NCBI GenBank assembly: GCA_964521295.1
Contig: CAZFRF010000001.1
Span: 334,146-398,145, forward strand
Length of the DNA stretch: 64,000 nucleotides
Direction: 5' to 3'
From: an uncultured Gammaproteobacteria bacterium
GTDB lineage: Bacteria; Patescibacteriota; Microgenomatia; Levybacterales; UBA12049
Each line of letters begins with the position of its first letter. Positions within the stretch are counted from its first letter, which is position 1. Below the pieces are notes generated by a model. That model ran no database searches. It saw only the letters and a list, made by a program, of their open reading frames with translations, and was not told the DNA's origin. Of the stretch, positions 34,424 through 61,777 are shown in pieces. Made by a program: the position numbers and the translations under genes.

Positions 34424-34424
34424 A

Positions 34425-38123: not shown

Positions 38124-38124
38124 T

Positions 38125-44952: not shown

Positions 44953-45794
44953 TACTTCTTTCTTGCAAGTATAGCAGTACCTAATCCGCTTTTATTATCT
45001 ATAAGAAGATCAAGCTTAGACAATAAATACAAGAATGGATAAAAAATGCCAAGCAAAATAAAACCTTTAGGTAAAATCATGTGATTTAATTCCCAAGCAA
45101 GTTTTCCAAAAAAACCAAATGTCTCTCTTGCCCAAATATTACTAAATCCTAAATCCGCCATTGTTTTTTTTAGCTCATCTGGCGTAAAGCCCTCATGAAT
45201 ATGCCCTTCATGATGCCAATTCTCTAAACTCTTGAAAATACGTTTTTGATTTTTTTGAGGGGTATGGATAAAAAGATATCCACCCTTTGCAAGCAATTTA
45301 TAAAAACTTCTTAGAACATCTTTATAATCATCTATATGCTCTAAAACATCAATATTTACTATTAGATCATATTTATTCTTATTTTTAAAAGAAGGCCTTG
45401 TGACATCACCGTATATAAAATTAGTATTTTCTATCTTTAACTGTTTTGCAAACCCTTCTGAAAAAGACAGTTTATTCTTATCAATCTCCCATCCATCAAC
45501 AACTGACTTATTAAATTTATTACTAAGCCAAAAAGTATATATTCCTATACCACTTCCTGCATCAAGCACTCTTTTTACCTTGCTTATCTTAACCCTCTCC
45601 GAAACCATATCCCTAAAATAGCTACTTCTTAATTGAAACCCAATCTCTGGAATACCAAAAATAAGTAAATATGTTTTTTGAAGCAAAGTAAGAATTAAAA
45701 AATTTTTATTTTTAATGTTTTTCTTATTTCCTGACATCTCTTTAAGAGAATCCATAAGAATTTGTGGATGATTATAATAATTAGAACCAAACAT
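44952..45794 (-). CDS. class I SAM-dependent methyltransferase
   Basis: VLDAGSGIGIYT motif I. Motif II LIVNIDVLEH. Confidence 0.65.
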   Translation of the reverse strand: MFGSNYYNHPQILMDSLKEMSGNKKNIKNKNFLILTLLQKTYLLIFGIPEIGFQLRSSYFRDMVSERVKISKVKRVLDAGSGIGIYTFWLSNKFNKSVVDGWEIDKNKLSFSEGFAKQLKIENTNFIYGDVTRPSFKNKNKYDLIVNIDVLEHIDDYKDVLRSFYKLLAKGGYLFIHTPQKNQKRIFKSLENWHHEGHIHEGFTPDELKKTMADLGFSNIWARETFGFFGKLAWELNHMILPKGFILLGIFYPFLYLLSKLDLLIDNKSGLGTAILARKK

Positions 45795-45800
45795 AATTAA

Positions 45801-47120
45801 CTATTGTTCATTATATAAAAAAATAGTCCAAATATTTAGGAGGAAAATAAAAATTAAAAGAGCATAATTTAATAAATTAGATTTCCTTAGTGTTTTTGGG
45901 AAAACAAGTGGAACAAGTGAAAGACCACAAAGTATTAAATATACTCTAAATATTAGAAACGAGAATCCATAAGACGCTCCCCAACTAAGCTGTAGCATTG
46001 AAAGGCCAGTAAAAAGCAAAAAGAGCAATGTGAATATTCTATTTTTATTAAAATGATCTTGTAAGAATAAAGCAATAGAAACTATTAAGAATGGATAGAA
46101 GGGAAATCTATACCATCCATGACTTGGCTCATTTGGGATTGCAAAAGTATAAACTGCAAAATATGCCATAAATGGAATTAGAACTAAATAGTTTTTCTTA
46201 ATATCTTTGGCTGCAATTAAAAATATCGCAAACCAACCAATATATATCCACCCATCAATCATGAACCTATCAACCGCATAAGGAGAAGTAAAAATAGCAA
46301 AAATACTATTAAAAATTAAATCATATCTTTGTAACTGAAAACTTAGTAAATCAAAAAACAATTTGGAATCATAATGCACTCCATAAACAACAAATAATAA
46401 TACTATTGGTATAACAATTGCCAAAAATCTAAAGACATCATTGAATTTTCTAAATAAAAGTAAAATAAGAATCACTGCTAATGTAGCTGCAAGCCAAGGG
46501 AGCTTTGCTAAGGCTAATATTCCACATATCACAGCAGCTAAGTTTCTAAAAATAGTTTTTTTAGTTTTTAAAAACCTATGTATTAATAAAAGTGACAATA
46601 AGAAAAAGGGGATAAAGAAGTTTTCGTTTTGAACAATTCTTGATCCAACTACAACAGTTGGTACAGTAGCATAGATTAAGGCAGATAATAATCCTATTTT
46701 AAATCCATAAAACTCTGCGGCAAACACATATAGCATAAAAATACTTAAAACTCCAAGTATTAAGGCAAGTCCTCTAATATGTTGTACATCTACTTCATAC
46801 ATATCCTTTACACCCGATAATAATGCATAGGAACCTGCAACTAAACCAAATACAGGTGGGTGTTCAAGATATGGCTTTACAATAAAAAAATTTGTTTTTT
46901 GATAAATCACATGTTTCTTATCAGTATATTGAGGATGATATGACCAGGAAATTGGAGTATGATTTTGAATAATATTTATTCCAAGCCATGTCCAAGCATA
47001 TTCATCAAATGTAGATCCAACTCTTGGCCATGTATATAGATTGTTAAATCTAAGCACTAATCCTAGAACTAATATTAAAGCTAATAGTAAAAATCTAAAT
47101 TTAAATAAATACTTATCCAT
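45801..47120 (-). CDS. polytopic GT-C-fold glycosyltransferase-like membrane protein (439 aa)
   Basis: About 11 TM helices. First-loop motif STFDEYAWTWLG (DE). Confidence 0.45.
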   Translation of the reverse strand: MDKYLFKFRFLLLALILVLGLVLRFNNLYTWPRVGSTFDEYAWTWLGINIIQNHTPISWSYHPQYTDKKHVIYQKTNFFIVKPYLEHPPVFGLVAGSYALLSGVKDMYEVDVQHIRGLALILGVLSIFMLYVFAAEFYGFKIGLLSALIYATVPTVVVGSRIVQNENFFIPFFLLSLLLIHRFLKTKKTIFRNLAAVICGILALAKLPWLAATLAVILILLLFRKFNDVFRFLAIVIPIVLLFVVYGVHYDSKLFFDLLSFQLQRYDLIFNSIFAIFTSPYAVDRFMIDGWIYIGWFAIFLIAAKDIKKNYLVLIPFMAYFAVYTFAIPNEPSHGWYRFPFYPFLIVSIALFLQDHFNKNRIFTLLFLLFTGLSMLQLSWGASYGFSFLIFRVYLILCGLSLVPLVFPKTLRKSNLLNYALLIFIFLLNIWTIFLYNEQ

Positions 47121-48219
47121 TTATTGCTACTTTTTTAATAACTGATAAACTTTTTACTGCTGCATCTTCCCAGTCAAACGTATGAGCCCACTTCTTAGCA
47201 TTCTTTGATAATCTAAGCCTTAATTCCTTATCGCTCAGCACTCTACATACTTTTTCAACAAATTCTGACTCATTTTCTGCAAGAAAACCCGTTTGACCAT
47301 CTTTTACTGACTCTGAAAGACCTGCAACATTAAATGCTACAGTTGAGGCGCCATGTAAATTTGCTTCAATAACTGAAATTCCCCAACCCTCTCCGATTGA
47401 AGGATTTACAAATACCCATGTCTTAGAAAGTAAATGCTTTTTTTCTGATTCACTTACTGGACCAATTATTTTAATTTTTCTTCTTGCCACACTTCTCATA
47501 GTCATATCTGTAATTGACGATGCCTCTGTGCCCCAACCTGCAATTATTAAATTTGCATTTGGAATTTTTTTTAATATCTCAGGCATTAACTTGATTAGCA
47601 AATCAACTCTTTTATACTTTTTAATTCTTCCTAAATATAGAATTGTTGGTTTATAAAATTTACTTAATGAATTACTCACCTTTACCTTATTAATTCCACA
47701 ATAAACAATTTCAATATTCTTACTCTTTAAGCCTAATTTAATTAGATCGTCTCTAGTAGTCTTTGAAATAGAAATAATTTTTGTATTAATATATAAAAGA
47801 GGAAAAAGATATTTTTCTATTACAAATCCTACAATATTTATAGGAAAAGGGAGTTCAATAAAAAATTGCTTACCATGGACATGATAAACAACAGCAATTT
47901 TAGGCTTTCTAATATAAAAAGGGGTAAAAAAGGGAATTCCATTTTGCACATCTACAACAACATCTGTATTATTTCTAAATTTTTTAAAATAATATATAAA
48001 TGCCCAAAAATATAAAGCAAACCTTCCACCTTTTCTATAAACCCTAATGCCATTTATCACTTCTTCGTCTTTAAGACCACCTTTAACATCTTGTCCACAG
48101 AAAAGACTTACACTATGTCCCATCTTAACCCATCTTCTTGCAAGCTCTGAAATATAAACCTCTCCTCCTCCTGCCCACTCATGTCTTGTATCTCTCCAGT
48201 TTAAAATTAAAATATTCAT
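47113..48219 (-). CDS. glycosyltransferase family 4
   Basis: EGWGISVIEANLHGASTVAF. Confidence 0.7.
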   Translation of the reverse strand: MNILILNWRDTRHEWAGGGEVYISELARRWVKMGHSVSLFCGQDVKGGLKDEEVINGIRVYRKGGRFALYFWAFIYYFKKFRNNTDVVVDVQNGIPFFTPFYIRKPKIAVVYHVHGKQFFIELPFPINIVGFVIEKYLFPLLYINTKIISISKTTRDDLIKLGLKSKNIEIVYCGINKVKVSNSLSKFYKPTILYLGRIKKYKRVDLLIKLMPEILKKIPNANLIIAGWGTEASSITDMTMRSVARRKIKIIGPVSESEKKHLLSKTWVFVNPSIGEGWGISVIEANLHGASTVAFNVAGLSESVKDGQTGFLAENESEFVEKVCRVLSDKELRLRLSKNAKKWAHTFDWEDAAVKSLSVIKKVAING

Positions 48220-48956
48220 TTTGTATAATAGTGCAAGATTTTAATTCTATAAAAAACTGCTAAATTATCCCACATCATTCGAATAATTGTTTTCCAAAAG
48301 TTAAAAGCAGAGATAGAGCTATAACCCTTAAAATCAAGCTTTATAGGCGATTCATAAATTTTTCTATAACCAAGTAAGTATGCTACGGCTAAAAATTCTA
48401 TATCAAAAGCGAATCTTTTAACAAGTAGTCTCTTAAAAACATTTTTTGCCACTTCTTTTGTGTATATTTTAAAACCAACCTGAGTATCTTTAACATTAAA
48501 TCCAAAGAGAAGATGTGTAAAATTTCTATAACCCCATGAAAGTATTTTTCTTGCGATTGGATAATTTACTTTTGATTGAGGATGAAGCTTGCTACCAACA
48601 ACAATGTCTGCATTATTAAATTCCATTAAATTAAGCATTATGGATATTTCAGATGGATCAATATCCATACCTGCATCTATAAAACCAATAACATCTCCCT
48701 TTGCTTTTAAAGTACCAAATTTCACTGCGTAACCTTTTCCTTGGTTTTTTTCGTATGTTAAAATTATAATATTACTTTTACTGACTGATTTTACCTTTTC
48801 ATAAGTGTTATCAGCATTACCATCTATAACAACAATTATTTCGTATTTAATGTTTAAATGAGACAAAATACTATCAAGATTTTTAATATCTCTAACAATC
48901 GTTTTCTCTTGCTTATATGCGGGGACAACTAAAGATAAATACTTAAAACTTTTCAT
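48216..48956 (-). CDS. polyprenyl-phosphate glycosyltransferase (DPM1/GtrB-type GT2, no TM helices)
   Basis: LSLVVPAYKQEKTI, IIVVIDGNADNT, DAGMDIDPSEI, VVGSK. Confidence 0.65.
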   Translation of the reverse strand: MKSFKYLSLVVPAYKQEKTIVRDIKNLDSILSHLNIKYEIIVVIDGNADNTYEKVKSVSKSNIIILTYEKNQGKGYAVKFGTLKAKGDVIGFIDAGMDIDPSEISIMLNLMEFNNADIVVGSKLHPQSKVNYPIARKILSWGYRNFTHLLFGFNVKDTQVGFKIYTKEVAKNVFKRLLVKRFAFDIEFLAVAYLLGYRKIYESPIKLDFKGYSSISAFNFWKTIIRMMWDNLAVFYRIKILHYYTK

Positions 48957-48990: not shown

Positions 48991-50259
48991 CTATAGATTA
49001 AATTTTTTGAAGTAATAAGTCAATAGAGTTATAAGTAAAACTAATGCCGTAGCTAGTGATGAATATATGACCTGGTAAAAGTCGGCGTGAAAAATACTTA
49101 TCAAAGTTATTTGAAAAATTGCAGCAATTATTACAAAATATGAAATCTTAGTTTCATTAAAAGATAAGAAAAAATTTACGCAAACATTAACAAGACTAAA
49201 TATTGTTAAATAAAAACCAAATATACCCAGATACTTAGAAAGCATTAAGTATTCTCTTCCTCCTAAGAATAAATTTATTGTTATTTGAGGGAATAAATAA
49301 TAGAAACCAGTAATTAACATACCTGGTAAAAATACCAATAAAAGAGCAAGGTAAAATAATTTTTTGTATTCAAGCCCTAATGTATGTCTTTTAACAAGAA
49401 GTGGGAACATGACCATAGGGATTGGAAATGTAAAATAAAATATTACTTTACCAATAAGTGACATTCCTGCATAAAAACCAGCGACTTGAGGCTCAAAAAA
49501 ATGCTTAACTAAAATTACATCAGTTGAAGTAAAGGATGTCATAAATAAAACTGTGATAAAAGTAGGAACTGCATATTTAAGCAAAGTTTTTGTCTGATTT
49601 GGAATCTTCTTGTCTGATTCATGAACTAACAATATCTTCCTTAAAGGTACAAATGCCACTAAAAACATTCCAAAAGTCATAAAAAACACAGCCCAAAGAC
49701 CTCCAAATGCCCTATAACCCAGTACTACTAATGCTATACCAAATAGTAATTTAAAAAATCCTCCAGAAATATTTAAAAACGACATGAAGTTAAATCTTAA
49801 AAGTCCCTGAAGAAATGCCATATTTAATGTATTTAAATAAAATGTTGCTATAGCAATTGCAGAAATTAATATATATAAGGAATTGTTTAAATTAAGATAA
49901 CTTGCCAAAGGATTTGCTAAAACAGCACCTAATCCAACAATAAAAATACAAATAAGTAATATTAATTTAAAAAAATAAGTATACAAATGTTTTAATTTTC
50001 CTGTTTGATTGGTAATAAAATAATCTGTAGCAAATTTAATAATTATTGTATTAATTGAACTTGCAGGTACTGCTGCTAAAGTAATTAAAGATAAAAGAGA
50101 AGCAAAAATTGCATAATCCGCATACGAGAGATTTCTAGCCAAAAACCAATTTAAAATAAATGCTAGAAAATTTGCAATAATTGAACCTAAAAATAACTGA
50201 AAACTGCCAGATACTAGCTCATGAGCAGCTACTTTTTTAATAAATTCCATATTAACCAA
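48991..50259 (-). CDS. Wzx-like oligosaccharide flippase (MOP superfamily polysaccharide biosynthesis protein)
   Basis: 422 aa with about 12 TM helices. N-terminal FLGSIIANFLAFILNWFLARNLSYADYAIFASLL is typical of Wzx-family proteins. Confidence 0.55.
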   Translation of the reverse strand: MVNMEFIKKVAAHELVSGSFQLFLGSIIANFLAFILNWFLARNLSYADYAIFASLLSLITLAAVPASSINTIIIKFATDYFITNQTGKLKHLYTYFFKLILLICIFIVGLGAVLANPLASYLNLNNSLYILISAIAIATFYLNTLNMAFLQGLLRFNFMSFLNISGGFFKLLFGIALVVLGYRAFGGLWAVFFMTFGMFLVAFVPLRKILLVHESDKKIPNQTKTLLKYAVPTFITVLFMTSFTSTDVILVKHFFEPQVAGFYAGMSLIGKVIFYFTFPIPMVMFPLLVKRHTLGLEYKKLFYLALLLVFLPGMLITGFYYLFPQITINLFLGGREYLMLSKYLGIFGFYLTIFSLVNVCVNFFLSFNETKISYFVIIAAIFQITLISIFHADFYQVIYSSLATALVLLITLLTYYFKKFNL

Positions 50260-51301
50260 CTACCTTTTTATATACCTCAATCGTTTCTTTTGCAGTTTTT
50301 TTCCAAGAATATTTTTTAACATTTGCGTAACCTCTCCTAACTAGCTCTTCCTGAAGTTTTTTATCACTTAAAACTGCTTTTATACCCTCAGCAATACTAC
50401 GTAAATCAAATGCATCAACAATATAAACACTATTTCCCAATACTTCTTTTAACGACCCCTCTGCTGTTGCTATTACCGGACACCCACAGGCTTGCGCCTC
50501 AAGTGCAGGCAAACCAAACCCCTCATAAAAAGATGGAAGAATGGCTATATCAGCTACATTATATAAATTAACTAAATCGTCTGAATCAACAAATCCCAAT
50601 CTAAATATCTTAGGGTTATCCTTTGCTAACTCGTGCACCCTATTTAAATCATGGTTCCAAGGGTTTTTCTTATCATAGTCCTGATTAACTAAGCTTTTAC
50701 CAACCATAACTAAATTAACCTGAGCAGCATTAACTGCATTAATAAGCCTAGGTAAGTTTTTATTTGCTGTAACGTCGCCAACATAAAGAACAAATTTATC
50801 TGGAAGATTAAATTTCTTTTTTATTTTATCCTTTTCTTCCTTAGACAAATTTAAATTCCTAAATTGCTTGCCAGAGGCTAGATACACAACATCAATTTTC
50901 GCTTCCTTAATTTTTGCAAACTTAATTATATCCTCTTTGGAATTAGATGAATCAGTAATAATTCTCCGTGTTTTTTTAAGAGAAAATTTTTGCATTTGCC
51001 ATTTTAATTCTCCTTTAAAACCTCTAGGAAATAGTTCTTTAAAAACAATTGGCGTTAAATCATGAATGGTAACAACAGTCTTATATCTCTTATAAATAGG
51101 TAATGCCAAGAAAAATGGCTCAAAATATGGAAAATGCACCAGATCTACATTCTTTGGAATAGGTTGACCTGCTTCAAAAAAAACGTATTCGTTTTCTGGA
51201 AAATATTCCAAAAGAGCAGCTTTTAAATTTTCTAAATAAAATCCTACTCCTCTTATTTTATGGCCTGTTTGTAAAGGCGAGATATCAATTGCGATCTTCA
51301 T
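50252..51301 (-). CDS. glycosyltransferase family 4
   Basis: EGFGLPALEAQACGCPVIAT. Confidence 0.75.
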   Translation of the reverse strand: MKIAIDISPLQTGHKIRGVGFYLENLKAALLEYFPENEYVFFEAGQPIPKNVDLVHFPYFEPFFLALPIYKRYKTVVTIHDLTPIVFKELFPRGFKGELKWQMQKFSLKKTRRIITDSSNSKEDIIKFAKIKEAKIDVVYLASGKQFRNLNLSKEEKDKIKKKFNLPDKFVLYVGDVTANKNLPRLINAVNAAQVNLVMVGKSLVNQDYDKKNPWNHDLNRVHELAKDNPKIFRLGFVDSDDLVNLYNVADIAILPSFYEGFGLPALEAQACGCPVIATAEGSLKEVLGNSVYIVDAFDLRSIAEGIKAVLSDKKLQEELVRRGYANVKKYSWKKTAKETIEVYKKVVG

Positions 51302-52473
51302 ATTTTCTTTACTATTAATTTAACACAGCTTACAACTCCGTATATAAGAATTATATATAAAATTGGAATCAAAATCACAAAATATCTTGAAAAAACTTGT
51401 CCTGTACTTAAAAAAACTAAATAAACAAACGCCCAAGTAAGTAAGATGTTTATATTTGTTTTATGAGGAATCAGTTTTAATAAATATAAAGTCATAATTA
51501 TCACGTACCCCACTGTTAAGATAGGCCAGGTAATGGACCATTGAGGATCTGAAATTACTGGTTTATTACCAAACCAAACATACCACTTGTTTAGCAATAA
51601 CAATGGCCAAACTGATAAAGGCAATATCAAAAAACTCTTGTGATAATCAAACACCCATCTTTGAATTCCTAAGAATTTAGAAAATGTATATCCAAATGCA
51701 AACACCCTTATATAGCTAATAAGCAAAACAAAAAGTGAGATGGGTAAAGTAATTGTTAAATGAATCAACCTCTTTTTATCTCTCATAAAAAGCAAAACCA
51801 GATACCAGGCTGCAATTACAGTAAATCCTGATATAAAAAATTTAGTCGCAATAAAAAATCCTAAAAATAGATTAGCTAAAGAGAAATTTAGCAACGATCT
51901 ATTAACTAAACCCTTATTAAAAAAATAAAATGTACCTATTAAAAAAAATAATTGGAAAACATCCATTAGTGGCGTATAAACAAACTGATTTTTAAAAATA
52001 GCCTCAAAGCTTAATAAAGTAACAGGTATCAAAGCTAAAGTTGAATCCTTCAGAACTTGTTTACTTAGAAGATACAGAAAACCTAAGGACAATACTCCAA
52101 AAATCAATACAACCATCGAATCATTGTCAAAAATCAAAGTTGATAAACCAATGAGATATTTTCCCAAGGGTGGAGCATCCGGAACTACTAAAACTGGGCT
52201 TGTTCCTTTTATTAACTTTCCACCTGAATATGAGAATGCAGTCTGATCTGGAATGAATCCCTTTGCGTGCTTACTAACATATTGAGAATCTAAAAAAATT
52301 TTCTCAAGGGATTCAAAATTCTCCCAGTATTTATAATCAAAATATCTGGATTTGTATTGATAAATATTAAGACCAAAATTTAAGCAGATGATTATTATAA
52401 AAATTAAATTAATTAATTTTTTATATTTGGAGATAAATTCTAAGAATTTTTTTGTTTTGAATGCCATTTCCAA
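51298..52473 (-). CDS. polytopic membrane protein (391 aa), candidate GT-C / polymerase-like
   Basis: About 10 TM helices with a periplasmic loop near the N-terminus. No motif I can assign. Confidence 0.4.
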   Translation of the reverse strand: MEMAFKTKKFLEFISKYKKLINLIFIIIICLNFGLNIYQYKSRYFDYKYWENFESLEKIFLDSQYVSKHAKGFIPDQTAFSYSGGKLIKGTSPVLVVPDAPPLGKYLIGLSTLIFDNDSMVVLIFGVLSLGFLYLLSKQVLKDSTLALIPVTLLSFEAIFKNQFVYTPLMDVFQLFFLIGTFYFFNKGLVNRSLLNFSLANLFLGFFIATKFFISGFTVIAAWYLVLLFMRDKKRLIHLTITLPISLFVLLISYIRVFAFGYTFSKFLGIQRWVFDYHKSFLILPLSVWPLLLLNKWYVWFGNKPVISDPQWSITWPILTVGYVIIMTLYLLKLIPHKTNINILLTWAFVYLVFLSTGQVFSRYFVILIPILYIILIYGVVSCVKLIVKKI

Positions 52474-53417
52474 GCTGATTCAATTATATTTTTTAAATCA
52501 GAATATTTCGGAGAAAATCCTAGTTCATTCTTTATTTTTGAACAATCAGCAATTAATTCATTTGCATCTCCCGGCCTACGAGGATGAATTTCAACAGGAA
52601 AATCTTTACCACTAACCTCTTTTACCATTGTTACTACCTCTTTATTCGAGTATCCATTTCCTGTTCCAACGTTATAATCAAAATAACCTTGATCTGTGCT
52701 TAATTTTTGCAGTGCAGATAAATGCGCTTGGGCTAAATCTAGAACATGTACATAATCCCTAACGCAGCTACCATCTTTGGTCTTGTAATCATCGCCAAAC
52801 AATTTAAAAGTAGAACCACTTAAAGCTGCCTTCATAACATTTGGGATTAAATGGGTTTCTGGATCATGAGCTTCCCCCATCGAACCATCTAGAGCTGCTC
52901 CTGCCGCATTAAAATACCTAAGTGCAACACTACTAATTCCCCTTTGCTTTGCGAACCAATACAGTAATCTCTCAACCATCCATTTACTCTCACCATAAGG
53001 ATTTTCTGGATTTTTTGGATGGTTTTCTGGAATAGGAACAGCTTGAGGATTGCCATATACACCTGCTGTTGATGAAAAGATAATTTTAGTTACACCATGC
53101 TTCAACATTGCTTCTAAGAGATTTAGAGTAACAAAAACATTATTGTGAAAGTAATTTTCTGGTTTTTCCATTGATTCTGCCATGGAAATATAGGCTGCAA
53201 AATGAATTACTGCATCAAATTTATGATCAGTAAATGCTCTATTTAAGAATTCAGCATCTAAAATATTACCCTGCAAAAAGACAGCTCTTGAATCCAAATT
53301 TTCTACATGACCCTTTTCCAAACTATCTATTACCACAACCTTATCTCCTCTATCTAAAAGAGTTTTAACCATAAAGCTACCGATATATCCTGCTCCACCT
53401 GTTACAAGTATTTTCAT
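52440..53417 (-). CDS. galE: UDP-glucose 4-epimerase (GalE)
   Basis: MKILVTGGAGYIGSFMV, YGESKWMVE (YxxxK), 325 aa. Confidence 0.8.
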   Translation of the reverse strand: MKILVTGGAGYIGSFMVKTLLDRGDKVVVIDSLEKGHVENLDSRAVFLQGNILDAEFLNRAFTDHKFDAVIHFAAYISMAESMEKPENYFHNNVFVTLNLLEAMLKHGVTKIIFSSTAGVYGNPQAVPIPENHPKNPENPYGESKWMVERLLYWFAKQRGISSVALRYFNAAGAALDGSMGEAHDPETHLIPNVMKAALSGSTFKLFGDDYKTKDGSCVRDYVHVLDLAQAHLSALQKLSTDQGYFDYNVGTGNGYSNKEVVTMVKEVSGKDFPVEIHPRRPGDANELIADCSKIKNELGFSPKYSDLKNIIESAWKWHSKQKNS

Positions 53418-55696
53418 ATCTTCTCTAGTATATATTTTTTTAAGTCAAAATTCGATTTCAAATTATGTTGACTTAACCAACCAATTAAATCATCATACGC
53501 GTTGACTTGATTAACATTAATCCATATCCTATTTTTAGGATTCAAATCTTCACTATCAACGTTACTTAAATTATTCAAATGCAAAATACTATTCTGAATA
53601 TAATTCTTGTCTAGCGAACAATCTTTTCCCAAGCAATTCAAGCCTACTTTTAGTCCATTCTGTGATTGCCTGCCATCGAATGCTATTAATAAGCTAAAAC
53701 CCATACTTGTGTCATATTTTTTATACTTATAATCATAAATTGAAAAATTATCATTTGGATACATAGTGTATAACTCGTTCTTAGCCTTTTGCAAAGCTGC
53801 TACCTGACTTGTCCACGTAAGTGTGCTTAAAACAGATACTAGATTACAACCCAAAACTACTACCACAGCTAAAACTGCTAAACCTTTAATATATTTATTC
53901 TTAAAATCTAAGAAAAATGAGAAAACATTTGCTGTTAATAACAATACTAAAGGAACAAGATACAATAAATAACCCTCAGATCTTTCCCCATGGTAATATC
54001 TATTAATAAAAATAAAAAGAAAAAGAAGAAGTCCCAAAGCTGCAAAAACGCTGGGAATTTTTCTTCTTAAAAGTAAATAGAAAAATACTAATACTGATAA
54101 TACTGCCAGTATCATTCCTATCCAGAAATAATTACCCACAATAAAACTCCAGAAGATTGGAACAAAATTACTAATAAATAATTTCCAACTATTAGGAACA
54201 AATATTCTATATTGTCCAATTAAAAAATAATCTAATAAATTTCTGATATTTGCAAAACTTTGTAAAGAATCCCAATATAATAGAGGCGACATGGGGATGA
54301 AAAAGCCTAAAACAGCTAGTAAAAAAGAAGATATTCTCTTCTTAAAACCTAAGCCCATCACAAGCAATACAGCAGGAAGCAAGACTAATAAATTAATAGC
54401 TTGATAATGAAAAGATAAAGCCATTCCAACCCAAAAACCCACAAATAAACCATGGAATATTTTCTTTTTTTGCCATAATAAAACAAAGCTAATTAAAGCT
54501 AAAGCTGAGAAAGTAGTTATAAATGTATGTTGTCCTAATGACAACGATCTTACAACTAATTGAGGCGAAGTCATTGCGAGCAATCCAACAATTAAGGAAA
54601 ATTTGTGTCCTTTAACTAAATTACCAAGATAAAGCAAGAGACCGAGAGTTAGGATGCTAATTAGCTCAAGCATTAACCAAGGTGCGTTAACCAAAAAGGG
54701 CAGAATTAAATAGGAAAGCATTATAAAACAATAAAATAAACCTCCGAAGACAAATGGACCTGCGCTACTAAAAGAACCAACCAAAGGTATTTCGTGACGT
54801 CTGAGTGCCTCCAAAGCGATCATCGCATCTCTTCCATCATCTCCAACCAAACCCCAACGATTTGGAAAGTTCCACAACCTAATAACCGCACCCACAATGA
54901 TAATCAGTGCAGCAAAAAACTTATATGGTCCTACGTATTTAATGTAAGAAACTGGAAACCTTAATGCAGAAAAAAGAGAAAACGTAAAACCCTGCCAACC
55001 ATCAATAAACCCTTTGTGCCTAATAAAAGTAGTCAGTAACCAATGAGTAGGTCTGATAAACAAATACATAAGCATATAGAAAAATTTCAGAAATAAGTTT
55101 TTCTTTGCTTGCTCTTCTTTTATTTGATTAGCATAAAAATTATTATAAAAATCCCATTTTTTTACATAGTGTTTAAAACTTGCGTAAGGATAATGCAATA
55201 GAGCAGTCTTTAAATAACCTACTTCTCCATCTATTTCCGCTTGCTCATGCACATCTTTTTGTGGAAGCCTACCTTTTCCTTTTCTATATAATCTAATCGT
55301 ATAATCAGGATACTGACCGCCTTTCATCAAGAATCTACCCAAAAACCAATTCTTTCTAGGAATCCAATAGCCATTAAATTCCTTAGGATTTTTTTCTAAA
55401 ATTTCTCTGATTTCAGTTTTTAATTCTGAGCTAACATGCTCATCAGCATCCATTTGCAGAATCCAGTCTTTTGTAGCCATATCAATCGCCATTTGCTTAT
55501 TAATATGAAAATTGGGCTTATTTGTTGTAACTTTTACTTTTGCACCAAAGCTTTTAGCTATATCTACTGTTTTATCAAAAGACGTACCATCTACGATAAT
55601 TATCTCATCAGCAATATCTTTTAAACTTTCTAAACAAGAAGGTAAATTCTTTTCTTCATTAAAAGTAGCAAGTACAACAGATAAAGTTTGTCGCAT
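53414..55696 (-). CDS. fusion protein: N-terminal GT2 (GT-A) domain plus C-terminal polytopic GT-C-like domain (760 aa)
   Basis: N-terminus LSVVLATFNEEKNL, IIIVDGTSFDKT, LQMDADEHV (WaaE/KdtX-like GT2). From about residue 250 onward there are about 12 TM helices, with a first-loop motif GDDGRDAMIALEALR...GPFVFGG shared with 57346..58878 and 58875..60131. Confidence 0.6.
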   Translation of the reverse strand: MRQTLSVVLATFNEEKNLPSCLESLKDIADEIIIVDGTSFDKTVDIAKSFGAKVKVTTNKPNFHINKQMAIDMATKDWILQMDADEHVSSELKTEIREILEKNPKEFNGYWIPRKNWFLGRFLMKGGQYPDYTIRLYRKGKGRLPQKDVHEQAEIDGEVGYLKTALLHYPYASFKHYVKKWDFYNNFYANQIKEEQAKKNLFLKFFYMLMYLFIRPTHWLLTTFIRHKGFIDGWQGFTFSLFSALRFPVSYIKYVGPYKFFAALIIIVGAVIRLWNFPNRWGLVGDDGRDAMIALEALRRHEIPLVGSFSSAGPFVFGGLFYCFIMLSYLILPFLVNAPWLMLELISILTLGLLLYLGNLVKGHKFSLIVGLLAMTSPQLVVRSLSLGQHTFITTFSALALISFVLLWQKKKIFHGLFVGFWVGMALSFHYQAINLLVLLPAVLLVMGLGFKKRISSFLLAVLGFFIPMSPLLYWDSLQSFANIRNLLDYFLIGQYRIFVPNSWKLFISNFVPIFWSFIVGNYFWIGMILAVLSVLVFFYLLLRRKIPSVFAALGLLLFLFIFINRYYHGERSEGYLLYLVPLVLLLTANVFSFFLDFKNKYIKGLAVLAVVVVLGCNLVSVLSTLTWTSQVAALQKAKNELYTMYPNDNFSIYDYKYKKYDTSMGFSLLIAFDGRQSQNGLKVGLNCLGKDCSLDKNYIQNSILHLNNLSNVDSEDLNPKNRIWINVNQVNAYDDLIGWLSQHNLKSNFDLKKYILEKI

Positions 55697-55708
55697 AAAT
55701 TGATAATA

Positions 55709-57349
55709 CTAATTAATCTTTCTTTTTACAAATAGCTTAATAAAAAAAGCTAATAGTACAACTCCTAAGGCAAATATGGAAAGGGCATCAGCAAGGAGCC
55801 TTAACTTAGTTTCTCCAAAAACAACCCTAACTAAATATTCACCTTTGGACAGATTAAAAAGCATAATTCCTCTATGTTCTGGATTCTGAAACTCTACATC
55901 TACAATTTGACCGTTGGCATAAATTTTCCAACCCGGAAAAAATAAAGTATTTTCCTTTATTTGCGCATCTTGCAAAACATCTATTTTATATTCATGTAAA
56001 TTAGCGGTTCGCCTAATCTCTTGAATATTAGCTTCACCCTCAATAACTTCTACATGCGCTGCTGGCCTTTTCTCCATAAACCTGACCGACCAAATAGGAG
56101 CACTTTCTCCTGTATCAGTTGTACTGTTATATATTCCAGTATAAAATTCTGCATTCTTATACAAATAACCCTTTGGGGTAAAATAAGGAATACTAACTAC
56201 TAGTACTACCGTAATAACAATTGCGCTAATTAATTTATGATTAATTTTTTTAGCTAAAACTTCTACTACATAGACAGTTAAAACCGCTGTTGTAAAAACA
56301 ATTAAAGCAATAAATCTCCAAGGGAACTGAAAATTTTGCAAAAGAATTATTTTATCCCAAATAAAATTTGAATAGGGTAACATTATAAAAATTGAAAGAA
56401 GAGTAAAGAGAATAAGCGTTGCAATCATAAGTAACTTAATTCGATCTTTTCTAAATACATATCCAGCAATAAATGATCCCAGCAAAACAAACCACTGAAA
56501 TATTCCAAGCTGTACTGTAAAAGCACCTGATCCACCGAAATCCCATGGTCCATAAATTAACCTAGGTATGTTTACAAAATTATTTATATATCCACCTTTA
56601 GTTACGATGTTTCTTAAAGTAAATTTTCCTTCTAAAAGGGCTGGCACCCAAAAGAAAGCAGATAGCATAAAACCTAGAGAAAAACCGACAATAAATTTAA
56701 TTAAATATTCTTTCTTGTTTTTTAAATTAATACTTAAGATTAATCCATATAAAAATATAAATGGAATACTTATTAAACTGATTGCATTATGAGCTAAGAT
56801 CAAAAGTGCTAAAGACAAAGAAATAAAAATATAATTATTAATTGTTTGTTTTTTAGAAAGCTTATAAATAAACAGCAAAGTAAGTGGAATGAATGCAAAT
56901 GCCAAATTCTCGCCTATGTCCCCCCTAACATACAATTCAACAAAGCGATAAGGCGCATAAGTATATAAAAATGCTCCTATAAGAGAAGAATTTCTTGATG
57001 AAAATTGAGATAACCATAGATACATAAATATAAATGAAAGAACCATCCCCATTCCCAAAACTATTTTTACTGAATCAACTAAAGAGAAACCTACGAAATG
57101 AAAAGCTGATGCAATATATGAAGGTAAAGGATATAAAAATTGTAAAACTGGGTGTCCATAGCCCCAATTTAAATTCTCAGCCCACCTAGGGATTATTACC
57201 CCATCGTTAAGTGCAGAATAAAAATTAGCAATTCTGGCCACATGATCTTGACCATCATGGGTAATTGGTAATCCTTGATGAAATAAAGAAATTACAGGAA
57301 TAAACAATAAGATTAAAAATAGTACGCTAAATAATTTTTTTGATATCAT
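55709..57349 (-). CDS. YfhO-like GT-C-fold membrane glycosyltransferase (546 aa)
   Basis: N-terminal HDGQDHVARIANFYSALNDGVIIPRWAENLNWGYGHPVLQFLYPLPSY, about 11 TM helices, a periplasmic beta domain and a C-terminal TM helix. Confidence 0.5.
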   Translation of the reverse strand: MISKKLFSVLFLILLFIPVISLFHQGLPITHDGQDHVARIANFYSALNDGVIIPRWAENLNWGYGHPVLQFLYPLPSYIASAFHFVGFSLVDSVKIVLGMGMVLSFIFMYLWLSQFSSRNSSLIGAFLYTYAPYRFVELYVRGDIGENLAFAFIPLTLLFIYKLSKKQTINNYIFISLSLALLILAHNAISLISIPFIFLYGLILSINLKNKKEYLIKFIVGFSLGFMLSAFFWVPALLEGKFTLRNIVTKGGYINNFVNIPRLIYGPWDFGGSGAFTVQLGIFQWFVLLGSFIAGYVFRKDRIKLLMIATLILFTLLSIFIMLPYSNFIWDKIILLQNFQFPWRFIALIVFTTAVLTVYVVEVLAKKINHKLISAIVITVVLVVSIPYFTPKGYLYKNAEFYTGIYNSTTDTGESAPIWSVRFMEKRPAAHVEVIEGEANIQEIRRTANLHEYKIDVLQDAQIKENTLFFPGWKIYANGQIVDVEFQNPEHRGIMLFNLSKGEYLVRVVFGETKLRLLADALSIFALGVVLLAFFIKLFVKRKIN

Positions 57350-58878
57350 AACTCTCTTTTCTGAACCACAAAACCACTAGGTAAAGTTTTTGTCCACTCC
57401 ACCTTTCCATCTTTAATCACTGTTTCTAACCATCCTTTATAACTCCATGGTTTTGAAGGATCAGGCTCCATTAATAGATAAAAGGTTCCTTTTTTTTCTT
57501 TATAAGGTATATAATCGTATTTTGCTTTTCCATACCACCATAATAAATAATCGTATGGATAAGTATATACTGGAGGACTAAATACCAAGAGACCAAACGG
57601 TTTTTTATTGGCATCTTTGTATATAAAATCTAAGACATCAATTTTACCTCTTATCTTAGCTATTCCACCATAATCAGGGTAATCATAAATTGTTGTTGCA
57701 ACTGCACTGTATATTCCAATTGGAAAATTTATAAAAATATATAAAAGTGCAATTAAAAAAATCTTAGTATTGTTCTTAAATGAACTATAAACTATGTAAC
57801 AAGAAAGAAGTAAATAGGCAACATTTAAATGCTGTAAGTAAATTCCGTAAACCGTATTCCTAAGTGGAGAAAAAACTAAATAAGTAACTGGGATCAAAAA
57901 TAATAGAAAGCTAAAGAAATATTTTAGATATTTTACTTTCTCTTTTCTTATGTAATAAACAGAAACAATAACAATAAATAAAAACACTAATAGATATAAT
58001 GACTGCAAAGGAAAAGTACTACTAAAACTATGTATAAATGAATTAAAGTGATCTATGAAAAAATTTGTTTCATTCACGTTATGATTAGTAGCTTTATGTT
58101 TAAAAATATAGGTAATAATTCCACGAAGACCTAGAAAATCATGTCTTACTTCAAATAAAAACATTGGGAGATATCCGAACACATAACCTACAAATAGAAA
58201 AATGTAGTTTTTAATGTGTTTCTTAAAAAGGAAAATTGAATAAATTAATAAAGTAAGAGATAAAGGAACTGCAATACCAAGCTCAAAGTTATATATAAAT
58301 CCTGAAAAAAATGCTGCTAAAAATGTAAATAATAATGATTTATTCTTCGAAAACAAATAAGTAAAATAAAATGTCAGAAGTATAAAAAATGTTGGTGGAT
58401 TTGGACTCCAGATAAACCTTGATTGAGCAGTGAAAATTGGCGCAATACTAATAAGTAACGAGAGTAATAAGCCTATCCACCGGTTAAACATCTTTAATCC
58501 TAAATAATAACCAAAAAGAATAGAAATTATTCCAAAGCCAAACATTAAAAATATTCCACCCTGAGGGTTTCCATTAAACAAAATAAAAACAATACTCAGC
58601 ATGTAGTAATATAATGGCCCATGAAAAACACCTGAGATTCCTGCGTCCCCCGCTCCAATTTCAGTTCCTATTAAGATAAATTTATGATCTACAACAATTT
58701 TCTTGGCTGCAAGCATTTCCCTTCCTTGATCAAAGAGAAATAAAGGGTTTTGATTAAGCAATTCAACGCAACGAGGAAATATTGCTAAAAAAACAACAGT
58801 AAATGCTATTAATATAAATAAAATATTAGACTTTTTTTTAGCAAGTATTAAAATCCAATTATAAAAACTGTTAATCAT
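57346..58878 (-). CDS. polytopic GT-C-fold (ArnT/PMT-like) glycosyltransferase
   Basis: FDQGREMLAAKKIV...GPLYYY first-loop motif. About 12 TM helices. Confidence 0.5.
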   Translation of the reverse strand: MINSFYNWILILAKKKSNILFILIAFTVVFLAIFPRCVELLNQNPLFLFDQGREMLAAKKIVVDHKFILIGTEIGAGDAGISGVFHGPLYYYMLSIVFILFNGNPQGGIFLMFGFGIISILFGYYLGLKMFNRWIGLLLSLLISIAPIFTAQSRFIWSPNPPTFFILLTFYFTYLFSKNKSLLFTFLAAFFSGFIYNFELGIAVPLSLTLLIYSIFLFKKHIKNYIFLFVGYVFGYLPMFLFEVRHDFLGLRGIITYIFKHKATNHNVNETNFFIDHFNSFIHSFSSTFPLQSLYLLVFLFIVIVSVYYIRKEKVKYLKYFFSFLLFLIPVTYLVFSPLRNTVYGIYLQHLNVAYLLLSCYIVYSSFKNNTKIFLIALLYIFINFPIGIYSAVATTIYDYPDYGGIAKIRGKIDVLDFIYKDANKKPFGLLVFSPPVYTYPYDYLLWWYGKAKYDYIPYKEKKGTFYLLMEPDPSKPWSYKGWLETVIKDGKVEWTKTLPSGFVVQKREL

Positions 58879-60131
58879 TTTTCTTTACCGGTTAAATAAT
58901 AAAAGATATAAATTTCAGGTACCCCCTGTCTCCATTCGGGTATAATTCCTTCTTTAACGATCTTCTGCGCATCAATAGTTTTAAATTTTAATCCGTTTAG
59001 CTCCTTATAGTTAATATAATTAGCTATATTTGTATAAGCGATTGTAAATAACGAAACGATAATTACAGCCTTTATCAATCGACTTCTAAGGCTAAAGATA
59101 GTATACAAAATAAATGCCAAAATAAACAAAACAATAAATCTATTGATTGCAAAATAATAGTCAGTTAGCTCTCCACTGTAGGTGGTAAAAACAAACCAAG
59201 GAATAATAAACCACAGAGCTACTAAATAGCAGAATGCAATCTGATTTCTGGTTTTTGATTTATAGAGTTGTAAAAAATAAAAAACTGGAATAAGCAAGAA
59301 CTTAATAGGAACTAACTTATCCCAAACAAGATAGGGGTTAAATTGTATCAATGCATCACTTGCAAGTTGCAATAATCTTCTTAAATGAAAACCATGATAA
59401 TTCTGACTTAAATAATTTCCCAAAGCATTACCAGATTTGTCTACAAACTGATGTACCAAGTTTGGGATTAGCCAAACAAAAAAGAATGGAAATGAAATTA
59501 GTATGTATTTCAACATTTCTTTAGTCCGAGGAAAAAAAGGTAAGCTTAAAAGAATAATAATTGGGAAAAAGATTGCTGTAAAATGAAGATTAAACGCTAT
59601 TCCTGTTAAAAATGCTAAAGGAATTACTTTTTTAGTCTCTCCTTGAATTACTCTATATAAAAAGTAAAAGATGAGCAAAGAGATTGATGGAATAAAAGCA
59701 ACTGGCCATTGTACTCGATCAAATTGAATTGCTGCAGTTGTAAACGTATTCAAAAATACTGCAAAAATTGCAACTTTTTCTGAAAACAGTTTTTTTGTAA
59801 CAAAATAAATTACCCAAAAAGTAAAAATGCTCGTTACTCCAGCCAAAATTGGAGATGCAATGGGATTTAAATTTGTTAAGAAATAAAATACAGCAACTAA
59901 ATAATAATATGCAGGTCCAATAAATATTCCACTATTGCCTTTTGCAACCATTCCTAGAAGTGGATACTCATGATTAACTAAAATCACCTTAGCTGCCCAA
60001 GCATTATCTACCTGATCATATCCAAAACCATTTTTTATGTCTAATTGATAAAAACGTAAAAACAATTCAAAGAGGAAAATTATTAAAACCAATAATAAAA
60101 GCTTATTTTTAAATATTTTTTTTAATTTCAT
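58875..60131 (-). CDS. polytopic GT-C-fold (ArnT/PMT-like) glycosyltransferase
   Basis: YDQVDNAWAAKVIL...GPAYYY first-loop motif. Paralog of 57346..58878. Confidence 0.5.
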   Translation of the reverse strand: MKLKKIFKNKLLLLVLIIFLFELFLRFYQLDIKNGFGYDQVDNAWAAKVILVNHEYPLLGMVAKGNSGIFIGPAYYYLVAVFYFLTNLNPIASPILAGVTSIFTFWVIYFVTKKLFSEKVAIFAVFLNTFTTAAIQFDRVQWPVAFIPSISLLIFYFLYRVIQGETKKVIPLAFLTGIAFNLHFTAIFFPIIILLSLPFFPRTKEMLKYILISFPFFFVWLIPNLVHQFVDKSGNALGNYLSQNYHGFHLRRLLQLASDALIQFNPYLVWDKLVPIKFLLIPVFYFLQLYKSKTRNQIAFCYLVALWFIIPWFVFTTYSGELTDYYFAINRFIVLFILAFILYTIFSLRSRLIKAVIIVSLFTIAYTNIANYINYKELNGLKFKTIDAQKIVKEGIIPEWRQGVPEIYIFYYLTGKEK

Positions 60132-61777
60132 TTTTCAACTATAACAATAGCTGGACTTCCATCCAGATTCTTAATCACTTTAGTTGCAAATTTTGGAGCA
60201 ATTTCTCGAGAAGTTGCGACAATCATTGTGTCTCTTAATTTATAATCTTGTTCCCAATCTATGTTTCTAAAAACAAATTTATCAAATTGATGATGATAAT
60301 CAAATTGACCACTACTATTTACACCAATCTTTTGATATTCCGCTGGTGGATACTTCAAGTAAAAGAGGAAGAACATGTAGGATTTATCCATGGGCTCCCT
60401 ATCGGAAATAATAATTTTGTCATATTTGTCATACTTAGCTACCACTTCGGCTACAGCCTCTTTATAACCATATTGCCAATCTTGGCTAGTATAATAATTT
60501 AACTGTACAAAATATTGATTAAGATAATATGTGAAATTGAATATCGCAAGACAAAGGAAAATTGAAATTGCAAAATATTTTATTCGTTTATACTGGAGAA
60601 TAAAATATAAACTACTTACAAGTCCTACGGCTGACAATATTTGCCAAGTTGGTAAAAAGTTTAACGTTCTTACCGCATGCGGTACTCCGGTGGTAATTGA
60701 TGCAGGAACAGGTGCTAGTAAAAACCATCCCAAAATAGTCAATTTTGCTTTTTTGTCTAAATCAGAAAATAGTAATTTATATATACCTATTAAAATAAAT
60801 GGTAGCTCAAAAAGATAAATAATTCCGACATTGGGCGCATGATGTCTTAAAATATCTCCTGAAGTAAAAAGCCAATTCAAATCAAAATGAGAGATATATC
60901 CATATACAATTGTCTTAGCATAAACAACCCTTCTATTATCTAAAACTAAACCTAAATAATCATTGTTTGCCTTATCTCGCTCTAATTTTTGAACATTATT
61001 TTTAAGAATTTCAGTTTGATAATTAAAAATACTTGTTCCTTTGACTCTTAATAACGCTGATTTGTCTGTTAATATATAAAATATCATTGGCGAAATTACA
61101 ACGAAACCAACAACAACTGCTAAGATGAGATATTTCTTTTTTAAAGCAAATAGGGCTTTCCTAAAAACAAAAATTAATAATAACGCAAGCAACGGAGTAA
61201 AAACTTTGTCGCTTTGATATGTGTAGATACTAAATGCGCCCATTGTTGCAGAAAGCCCCAATAACAATGGCTTTTTCAAACCTTTTACAAAAAAGAGGGC
61301 CATTAAAATATTAAATGCATCTCCGACATTTGATTCAAAACCAATTCTTGAAAATTGTAAGGACCACGGTGAGATAGCAAACAGCAAAGATGAAATCAAA
61401 GCAAGTTGATCTTTATATTTATATTTTTCAAACAATTCTCTGATTAGGAAAAACAAGACAATAGTTGCAATTACTCCAAATACAGCCGAAGGGAGCCTAA
61501 CCGCAAAAGTATTCAAACCAAATACAGCAACGCTAGGAATTGCTAAATATGCATACATTGCAGGTTTATAGTCATTAAACGATCTTAGGACTACTGGAAA
61601 CAGCTTTCCATACTCGTCTCTACCTGTATGCAAAAGCGAATAGGCATCATAACCCAATGCTACCTCATCCCAATCAGGTGAAGGTGGGATGTTTCCAAGC
61701 TGCCACAATCTTAAAATAACTGACAGTACAATTATGCCAATAAAAAGTAACCAAGTAATTTTTTTATTTATATTCAT
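60128..61777 (-). CDS. glycosyltransferase family 39/83-like (ArnT/PMT_2) GT-C membrane glycosyltransferase
   Basis: PDWDEVALGYDAYSLL...NDYKPAMYAYL matches the ArnT/PMT DE...KPPLxYW first-loop pattern. Confidence 0.6.
   Translation of the reverse strand: MNINKKITWLLFIGIIVLSVILRLWQLGNIPPSPDWDEVALGYDAYSLLHTGRDEYGKLFPVVLRSFNDYKPAMYAYLAIPSVAVFGLNTFAVRLPSAVFGVIATIVLFFLIRELFEKYKYKDQLALISSLLFAISPWSLQFSRIGFESNVGDAFNILMALFFVKGLKKPLLLGLSATMGAFSIYTYQSDKVFTPLLALLLIFVFRKALFALKKKYLILAVVVGFVVISPMIFYILTDKSALLRVKGTSIFNYQTEILKNNVQKLERDKANNDYLGLVLDNRRVVYAKTIVYGYISHFDLNWLFTSGDILRHHAPNVGIIYLFELPFILIGIYKLLFSDLDKKAKLTILGWFLLAPVPASITTGVPHAVRTLNFLPTWQILSAVGLVSSLYFILQYKRIKYFAISIFLCLAIFNFTYYLNQYFVQLNYYTSQDWQYGYKEAVAEVVAKYDKYDKIIISDREPMDKSYMFFLFYLKYPPAEYQKIGVNSSGQFDYHHQFDKFVFRNIDWEQDYKLRDTMIVATSREIAPKFATKVIKNLDGSPAIVIVEK

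Follow-up and report, generated by a model that had tools for sequence, protein, structure and literature searches.

The stretch studied here, 64,000 nucleotides (nt) of contig CAZFRF010000001.1 and called the window below, carries on its minus strand an uninterrupted open reading frame (ORF) at 53414–55696. It starts with ATG, has no internal stop and codes for a protein of 760 aa plus stop codon. The protein has three parts: a family 2 glycosyltransferase (GT2) module of GT-A fold (residues 1–255), a GT-C membrane module (residues 256–626), and a C-terminal alpha/beta domain (residues 627–760). The fused architecture is almost certainly real. According to sequence profiles and the predicted fold, the GT2 module groups with GmaR and SunS/ThuS, and not with the polyprenol-phosphate sugar synthases DPMS, GtrB, and ArnC. 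The protein is tentatively proposed to be a bifunctional, two-faced enzyme that would couple elongation in the cytoplasm with transfer beyond the membrane, two steps of one envelope-glycan pathway; this is quite possible, but far from assured. A sequence-only reading of the window had proposed a GT-A (GT2) domain and a GT-C domain in one 760-aa polypeptide, and the uninterrupted ORF, the Pfam match of the GT2 part, and the GT-C fold of the membrane part agree with it.

Conservation of the fusion

Homologues were searched for with a word-indexed method among 5.8 billion proteins. More than 50 clusters of 756–781 aa cover 100% of the query at 43–93% identity, so that the homologous fusions which the sequence-only reading had suggested looking for do exist. 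The full-length clusters are drawn from NCBI, JGI, ENA, and Logan assemblies, and the uninterrupted fusion ORF is also present in the related loci L001–L007. In an alignment of 40 fusions, the junction residues K253, Y254, and G256 hardly vary, and D36, D83, D85, E86, H150, and E151 of the GT2 module and D286 and D290 of the membrane module are invariant. The D83-A-D85 motif is invariant also across 16 stand-alone GT2 modules, and the D286/D290 pair across 46 stand-alone or fused membrane modules.

When compared with the closest orthologue, L001, the dN/dS ratio is about 0.02 for residues 1–255 and about 0.05 for residues 256–630, both approximate values with dS near saturation. Both halves appear in these comparisons to be under strong purifying selection, and the GT2 half is better conserved than the GT-C half (60–96% vs 26–85% identity). 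A degenerate GT2 pseudo-enzyme serving as a mere anchor was also considered, and was rejected on account of the six invariant GT2 residues and the ratio of about 0.02.

A sequencing or assembly error that joined two genes, which the sequence-only reading had named as its own possible undoing, has a negligible probability. Split forms do occur in related genomes, and a single-base error could in principle imitate a fusion. But the continuous ORF of 756–781 aa is found in clusters from different projects and assemblers as well as in L001–L007, the fused and split junctions differ by about 20 lost codons and not by a shift of 1 nt, and the junction residues are conserved. Because of the homologue clusters, the conserved junction, the invariant residues, and the low dN/dS values, a merged-gene artefact is excluded for practical purposes.

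Organisation of the fusion protein

The full-length AlphaFold2 model has a pLDDT of 86.5 and a pTM of 0.78. The GT-A catalytic core, an inverting GT2 of GmaR/SunS type according to Pfam, profile, and fold, takes up residues 1–172 (55181–55696), with the GT-A sheet at residues 5–168 of the model. The motifs quoted in the sequence-only reading are all present, FNEEKNL at residues 12–18, VDGTSFDKT at 35–43, and MDADE at 82–86. The DAD motif (D83–D85) is coded at 55442–55450 and the invariant H150-E151 at 55244–55249. The core is followed by a helical tail, residues 174–255 (54932–55177), recognized by model secondary structure and hydropathy. Of its three helices (residues 174–196, 201–226, and 234–255), the second and third are moderately hydrophobic or amphipathic; their hydropathy is 1.01 and 0.59, respectively, vs 1.5–2.7 in the clearest membrane helices. 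The tail carries the motif RHKGFxDGWQG, with R226-H-K-G-x-x-D232-x-x-x-G236 invariant, and a tail of this type is also found in stand-alone and tandem WaaE-type modules. It is probably a membrane-interface anchor. The N-terminal GT2 was thus correctly recognized, but with its conserved tail it is about 255 residues long rather than 200.

The first helix of the GT-C module (TM1), at residues 257–274 (54875–54928), is strongly hydrophobic according to both model and hydropathy, and it alone clearly crosses the membrane on the way from the GT2 tail to the first extracytoplasmic loop (EL1). EL1, at residues 275–319 (54740–54874), was placed by its conserved acidic residues. It consists of short helices and strands and contains D286-D-G-R-D290 (54827–54841) and a conserved SSAGPFxFG; from its sequence it is presumed to be the GT-C catalytic loop. 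The rest of the membrane bundle, residues 320–626 (53819–54739), has about 12 helices in the model; it was delimited by the model and Foldseek, and a sub-threshold PMT_2 match lies inside it. The C-terminal alpha/beta domain (53417–53818), seen in the model and in the alignment of 40 sequences, has a near-invariant pair of cysteines, C688/C693, and had no match in the Pfam scan. In the model it presumably lies on the extracytoplasmic side. The membrane part had been described as a 12-TM domain; it is polytopic, but there are 13 candidate membrane helices after residue 256 in the model and the alpha/beta domain in addition.

As the nucleotide sugars that the GT2 module needs are cytoplasmic, and a single clear membrane helix lies between its tail and the acidic loop, the GT2 site and the GT-C site of the modelled protein should be on opposite faces of the membrane. 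The earlier proposal of two membrane faces in one protein fits with the single TM1 between the GT2 tail and EL1, with the topology itself as a prediction. A positive-inside count over DSSP-defined helices (K+R 9 vs 8) favours neither orientation.

Affiliation of the GT2 module

Residues 6–127 match Pfam Glycos_transf_2 (PF00535) with E=4.5e-20 and 72.7 bits against a gathering score of 23.3. In a single-sequence search of solved relatives, GmaR was the best match (E=4.6e-16 over residues 1–186), followed by SunS. A profile built from 16 sequences of the module matched GmaR across the whole GT-A domain (E=9e-32, 4–194), then SunS (2e-18), ThuS (2e-15), and TarS (2e-13). Polyprenol-phosphate synthases matched the same profile with E=1e-9 to 7e-4 (PfDPMS 1e-9, GtrB 4e-7, ArnC 1.5e-4), confined to positions 2–103; the nucleotide-binding half is common to all GT2 enzymes. 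The DxD (DAD) and HEQ motifs are common to the module and GmaR.

The fold points in the same direction. In the model of the GT2 module only (pLDDT 94.5), the top Foldseek matches were SunS/ThuS (E about 1e-13, TMq 0.56–0.63), and the next were TarS, chondroitin polymerase (K4CP), WrtF, TarP, and SpsA. All of these enzymes have a hydroxyl or thiol as acceptor. The first polyprenol-phosphate synthase in the ranking was GtrB at rank 44 (TMq 0.41). As positive controls, the synthase candidates of the window at 48216–48956 and 26105–27040 and the protein P0203 of another genome align to lipid-phosphate synthases over 220–290 residues. Since the matches of the fused GT2 to DPMS, GtrB, and ArnC stop short of its acceptor half and these enzymes rank low by fold, it is predicted not to be of the donor-synthase type. 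The sequence-only reading had supposed that the protein could make and consume its own lipid-linked intermediate; as a polyprenol-phosphate synthase the GT2 module does not bear this out, its profile and fold being those of GmaR/SunS and the canonical synthases being separate genes. The same reading had called the module WaaE/KdtX-like. No WaaE-specific model was among the matches in the NCBIfam scan, and the label is an assumption from the C-terminal GFxDGxxG tail.

The membrane module

In the Pfam scan, residues 325–475 match PMT_2 (PF13231) with E=6.8e-5 and 23.6 bits, below the cut-off of 26.1, while PF13231 is recorded for many of the full-length orthologous fusions and stand-alone relatives. 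When the full model was compared with solved GT-C structures in Foldseek, AglB (E=1e-6), Pmt4 (4.9e-6, TMt 0.52), PglB (1e-5), and STT3 (about 4e-5) were all matched with probability 1.00. The sequence profile of the membrane module gave no significant GT-C match among PDB sequences (ArnT, E=5), and as it does not reach the solved GT-C structures, the assignment rests on the fold and on the Pfam matches in relatives. On this modelled fold, the membrane module is a GT-C, and the objection that it might show no GT-C homology falls.

The sequence-only reading had also noted the same first-loop motif in the neighbouring GT-C paralogues. What they have in common is a family-level acidic dyad, D-[D/E/Q], about 8–12 residues past TM1; beyond it, the paralogues of the window are scarcely alignable to the 760-aa protein (best BLASTP E=0.003, 23% identity).

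Fused, split, and other forms

The window and 80 related loci (n=81) were surveyed for the GT2 gene, here named GT2w. It sits in GT-C arrays throughout Microgenomates; such an array has three to five paralogues, and GT2w has its fixed position at the 3' end. The gene that follows it is a GT4 in 45 of the 81 loci, GalE in 20, and a GT-C in 8, so one of the first two is next in 65. A DPMS-like GT2 is present within the fetched flanks of GT2w in 55 of the 81 loci.

Among Levybacteria, the fused state was found in the window and L001–L007, and the split state in L008, L016, and L027, as well as in L009, whose GT-C is more divergent. In L008, the stop of the 263-aa GT2 overlaps the start of the 523-aa orthologous GT-C in ATGCATAA by 8 nt, an ordinary operonic junction. 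The GT-C is absent at that position in L010–L012, where the gene order is otherwise the same and GalE directly follows a GT2 of 256 aa. From these comparisons, the fusion is read as having arisen from two adjacent genes of an operon. The closest locus L001 (89% identity), L004, L006, L012, L013, and many others carry Levybacteria- or Patescibacteria-like genes, although they are titled 'uncultured Gammaproteobacteria' or 'Pseudomonadales' in third party annotation records of metagenome-assembled genomes, and these titles look like a taxonomic mislabel.

At least three more GT-C paralogues have GT2w as their fusion partner (P0056, P0063, and P0093/P0094). The EL1 motifs of P0056, P0063, P0093, and P0094 are FDQGRD, TDIARD, and VDQARD, and P0063, P0093, and P0094 have another C-terminal domain in common, which ends in ...DPN....LHFR. 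P0199 (601 aa) is a fusion of GT2w to a GT4. Tandem GT2-GT2 proteins of about 525–565 aa were found as well (P0154, P0159, P0163, P0169, P0197, P0204, P0208, and P0214), in which both copies have a GF(L)DGxxG...KYxKxWE tail. Their interpretation as a pair of GT2w and a DPMS-type enzyme, which would have spoken for consecutive action on a polyprenol-phosphate sugar, was rejected, as both copies are the same WaaE-type module; the hosts appear to be bacteria outside the Candidate Phyla Radiation (CPR), judging by composition alone. In a neighbour-joining tree of GT2 modules, fused, split, and stand-alone forms are interspersed, which is suggestive only, the tree having no bootstrap. The exact fusion is one cluster among 1.84 billion representatives at 50% identity.

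A second type of fusion, the uncharacterised P0203 family of CPR genomes, combines a GT-C from the family of the window protein with a true DPMS-type GT2. It comprises at least 17 clusters of about 720–740 aa (P0203, P0261–P0273, P0277, P0278, and P0287 are members) and is present in locus L081 at 10001–12190. The layout of P0203 and P0270 is the same as that of the window protein, and their GT-C belongs to the same family (30% identity, 367 bits to the family HMM), but the GT2 aligns with PfDPMS over its whole domain (E=1e-14 over 11–250 for the N-terminus of P0203), and its homology to the window GT2 ends at the GT-A core. By sequence, the P0203 family looks like the architecture that the sequence-only reading had envisaged, and like a cleaner candidate than the window protein for an enzyme that makes the lipid-linked donor used by its own GT-C. 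In L081, the DPMS-type fusion lies alongside a stand-alone GT2w and a 226-aa DPMS-like GT2 that is directly followed by a 119-aa DUF2304 membrane protein (18884–19923). We take the latter pair to resemble GacI/GacJ (WpsA/WpsB). Pairs of similar size (a soluble protein of about 225 aa and a protein of 110–120 aa with about three membrane helices) are found downstream of GT2w in many Pacebacteria-type loci. More fusions of a GT2 with PMT/PMT_2 are P0344 (773 aa, from a Candidatus Diapherotrites archaeon), P0362, and P0340, and GT-A/GT-C fusion seems to recur in uncultivated lineages with small genomes, including one DPANN archaeon.

The glycan island

The fusion gene belongs to a glycan island of more than 46 kb (17877–64000), coded entirely on the minus strand; all genes examined between about 17.9 kb and the window's end are for glycan synthesis. 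The window has about 30% G+C and a strict one-strand gene order, in keeping with a Candidatus Levybacteria genome (Patescibacteria/CPR, Microgenomates group). The stop codon of the fusion ORF overlaps the start codon (ATGA) of the translationally coupled downstream gene at 52440–53417, which codes for GalE, UDP-glucose 4-epimerase (TIGR01179, 419 bits vs a cut-off of 262). GalE is followed by a short PMT_2 GT-C paralogue of 391 aa (51298–52473), a GT4 (50252–51301) whose orthologue is elsewhere the commonest gene directly downstream of GT2w and is the GT4 joined to it in P0199, and a Wzx-like flippase of the Polysacc_synt family with about 12 membrane helices (48991–50259), all recognized by Pfam. 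Upstream of the fusion is an array of five GT-C paralogues (55709–63413), assigned by Pfam and comparison. The first is a PTPS_related/YfhO-like GT-C (55709–57349), and the other four are PMT_2 GT-Cs (57346–58878, 58875–60131, 60128–61777, and 61764–63413).

Two separate genes are candidates for polyprenol-phosphate sugar synthases. The product of 48216–48956 (246 aa, no membrane helix) is of the DPMS type, with PfDPMS (5mlz) as the best match (E=5.5e-15 over 7–226) and GtrB and ArnC next; there is no DUF2304 partner gene adjacent to it. The product of 26105–27040 (311 aa, with C-terminal membrane helices) is of the ArnC/GtrB type, matching ArnC with E=5e-48 over 2–289 and GtrB with 5e-29. Their differing subtypes suggest at least two distinct lipid-linked sugar donors. 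In total, about ten GT-Cs are coded in the island, namely those at 19061–20497, 34749–38195, 45801–47120, 51298–52473, and 53414–55696 and the five of the upstream array, an unusually large share for a small CPR genome. The one at 34749–38195 is an AftD-like GT-C of 1148 aa, and the minimum of G+C content in the window, 24.5% at 34001–36000, lies across its gene.

Other content of the island includes RmlA–D, several GT2 and GT4 genes, and epimerases. At least five S-adenosylmethionine-dependent methyltransferase genes (63392–63976, 44952–45794, 42430–43155, 31512–32099, and 29075–29836) hint at methylated sugars, and there are two hexapeptide acyltransferases (33824–34423 and 23712–24323) and a cytidylyltransferase (30952–31515). 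The ORF at 25369–25893 (174 aa) has only the N-terminal Glyco_transf_4 half and is directly upstream of a complete GT4 of 364 aa (24272–25366); it is possibly what remains of a truncated or split GT4. Among the large ORFs of the island, those at 20532–23708 (1058 aa), 27885–29057 (390 aa), and 27053–27883 (276 aa) had no Pfam match at E≤1e-4, and that at 32103–33827 (574 aa) had none at E≤1e-3.

Proposed mechanism and alternative explanations

In the proposed mechanism, the GT2 module would be at the cytoplasmic face or inner leaflet of the membrane, with its amphipathic tail and the fusion itself keeping it in place. The donor would be a UDP-sugar, probably supplied by the co-translated GalE, and the acceptor a hydroxyl as in the closest relatives. 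The most plausible acceptor would be a sugar of an intermediate carried on polyprenol phosphate or diphosphate; this intermediate could be started by the DPMS-type or ArnC/GtrB-type synthase of the island and extended with the neighbouring GT4. The Wzx-like protein is a candidate flippase for the lipid-linked glycan. The GT-C module, with D286/D290 outside, may then use a lipid-linked donor and add its sugar or glycan to an acceptor on the outer side, which could be a wall polymer, a lipoglycan, or a surface protein. The fusion would tether a soluble GT2 to the membrane beside a later enzyme of the pathway, and would not be mechanistically obligatory. A role in a cytoplasmic assembly line is suggested because a GT4 follows GT2w in 45 of the 81 loci, GT2w is fused to a GT4 in P0199, and the Wzx-like flippase and GalE are adjacent.

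Several results weigh against this two-step role. One highly conserved GT2 is joined to at least four GT-C paralogues, and a DPMS-type synthase is the fusion partner of this GT-C family in other genomes, both of which also fit with a GT2 that makes donors. The nearest characterised relatives, GmaR and SunS, act on proteins or peptides and not on lipid-linked glycans, and the kinship to WaaE, which does act on a lipid-linked glycan, is putative.

The GT2 module could instead be a non-canonical polyprenol-phosphate sugar synthase, the product of which is flipped and used by its own GT-C. This is consistent with its repeated fusion to several paralogous GT-Cs, which it precedes in every case, with its much higher conservation than that of its GT-C partners, with its location in GT-C arrays throughout Microgenomates, and with the P0203 family, in which a GT-C of the same family has a true DPMS-type partner; moreover, the hydrophobic or amphipathic tail could stand in for the interface helices of DPMS/GtrB. 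However, profile and fold are those of GmaR and SunS/ThuS, and the acceptor half is unalignable to DPMS, GtrB, and ArnC. Canonical genes of both the DPMS and ArnC/GtrB types are coded in the same island, a DPMS-like GT2 is near GT2w in most of the loci surveyed, and L081 holds all three types side by side. GT2w is also fused to a GT4 and to its own copies, which is typical of glycan-chain builders, and GT2 to GT-C is the only topologically viable order, so it needs no functional explanation. A donor-making GT2 is therefore considered unlikely. A special form of it, in which a GmaR/SunS/WaaE-type GT2 belongs to an unrecognised, non-DPMS class of enzymes that attach sugar to polyprenol phosphate (or to a lipid-glycan) and feeds whichever GT-C is its fusion partner, is more doubtful still. 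If it were true, the 760-aa protein would be a self-contained machine to make, flip, and use the lipid-linked sugar, for which the GT2 tail and the GT-C bundle might form a crossing path.

It is equally unlikely that the fusion is neutral or weakly selected, the loss of a stop codon having joined two non-consecutive enzymes of the island with tethering or co-expression as the only benefit. CPR operons are compact, with overlapping genes, and the split pair overlaps by only 8 nt, so a small deletion would suffice. Fused, split, and stand-alone forms and those with other partners are interspersed on the GT2 tree, GT2w joins whatever is downstream (GT-C, GT4, or GT2), and the exact fusion is confined to a single cluster at 50% identity. 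Against such a fusion stand its persistence in orthologues down to about 43% identity, the strong purifying selection on both halves, and the conserved junction, and that several GT-C paralogues were independently fused suggests a benefit of some kind. A role in protein glycosylation, with the GT2 modifying a cytoplasmic protein or peptide (e.g., a surface protein before export) and the GT-C adding O-glycans outside in the manner of Pgf/PMT, is improbable. The closest solved relatives of the GT2 are protein and peptide glycosyltransferases, the GT-C fold resembles Pmt4, AglB, and PglB, and the order GT-A, GT-C, epimerase, GT-C resembles pgfS-pgfM1-pgfE-pgfM2 (PMC12041528). But the GT2 has a membrane-interface tail in place of the TPR or peptide-binding domains of GmaR/SunS, its surroundings (rhamnose, GT4, Wzx) are those of a polysaccharide-type island, and no candidate acceptor protein was identified.

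If the bifunctional, two-faced enzyme is the right interpretation, CPR bacteria would tether glycan-elongating enzymes to GT-C partners, as is suggested by the fused GT-A not being the expected donor synthase. To our knowledge, the envelope glycans of Microgenomates are essentially uncharacterised, and the fusion assigns a pathway context to a GT2 family conserved across this group. A conserved covalent GT-A/GT-C fusion is also a Rosetta-stone link between families whose pairings are usually hard to predict, and a compact structural target for the coordination of steps on two membrane faces. The P0203 family and the window fusion are a useful comparative pair.

Comparison with known systems

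Bacterial extracytoplasmic glycosylation is regarded as a relay in which the cytoplasmic GT-A, the flippase, and the outward-facing GT-C are distinct proteins. No description of GT2/GT-C or GT-A/GT-C fusions, or of CPR GT-C enzymes with such fusions, was found in the literature searched, which is no proof of absence. The window fusion and the P0203 fusion are likely to be modestly new, with chemistry that is probably conventional.

In sequence and fold, the closest relatives of the GT2 module are GmaR, which is the O-GlcNAc transferase of Listeria flagellin, and the S-glycosyltransferases SunS/ThuS, but GmaR and SunS are soluble, with TPR or peptide-binding C-terminal domains. The Hep-beta-1,4-glucosyltransferases WaaE/LgtF are presumably kin as well. 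WaaE glucosylates heptose I of the lipid-anchored core of lipopolysaccharide (PMC5372535), and a lipid-anchored glycan is the kind of acceptor proposed here. None of these enzymes is fused to a GT-C.

The membrane module is similar to ArnT (GT83), PMT (GT39), and PglB/AglB/STT3 (GT66) in its multi-helix bundle, acidic first outside loop, and C-terminal extramembrane domain, with fold matches of E=1e-6 to 1e-4 and PMT_2 similarity, which for this protein is sub-threshold. It differs from them in that sequence similarity is marginal, and the DDGRD loop, the C-terminal domain, and the N-terminal GT2 are peculiar to the CPR family.

The sequence-only reading had compared the protein with mycobacterial Ppm1 in the opposite order. 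In Ppm1 of M. tuberculosis (Rv2051c), D1 is a membrane anchor with six membrane helices, not described as a GT-C, and D2 is a DPM-type synthase (PMC3485146). Membrane and GT2 domains are fused in some species and are two operon genes in others, as here, but the domain order is reversed and no second, outward-facing glycosyltransferase activity is reported (PMC3485146). With no DPM-type GT2 in the window protein and a GT-C rather than a six-helix anchor, the resemblance is superficial, and only the fused-or-operon-split pattern is common to both.

The step sequence proposed is experimentally documented for lactococcal PSP (WpsA/WpsB, WpsC–F, WpsG, WpsH/I, and WpsJ), in which WpsA/B, of GtrB/GacI type, provide GlcNAc-P-C55 for elongation by soluble cytoplasmic glycosyltransferases, and after export by a Wzx-type flippase the product is transferred by a GT-C (PMC10821137). 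No component of that system is fused to a GT-C, and the parallel with WpsC–F is one of step order rather than of sequence orthology. A cytoplasmic GT-A, an outward GT-C, a flippase, and often an epimerase are co-encoded also in the GtrA/GtrB/GtrC, GacI/J/K/L, CsbB/YfhO, and PgfS/PgfE/PgfM1/PgfM2 systems (PMC12041528, PMC10821137), and in the Pgf operon the GT-A, GT-C, epimerase, GT-C neighbourhood serves protein O-glycosylation (PMC12041528). All parts of such systems are present in the island, and with polyprenol-phosphate GT2s, the Wzx-like flippase, and about ten GT-Cs encoded together, the locus as a whole is that of a three- or four-component system. In those systems, however, the GT-A is a separate synthase of the DPMS/GtrB type, whereas the GT-A fused in the window protein is GmaR/SunS-like. 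The window protein is probably an interesting variant of the known scheme of cell-surface glycosylation rather than a new principle.

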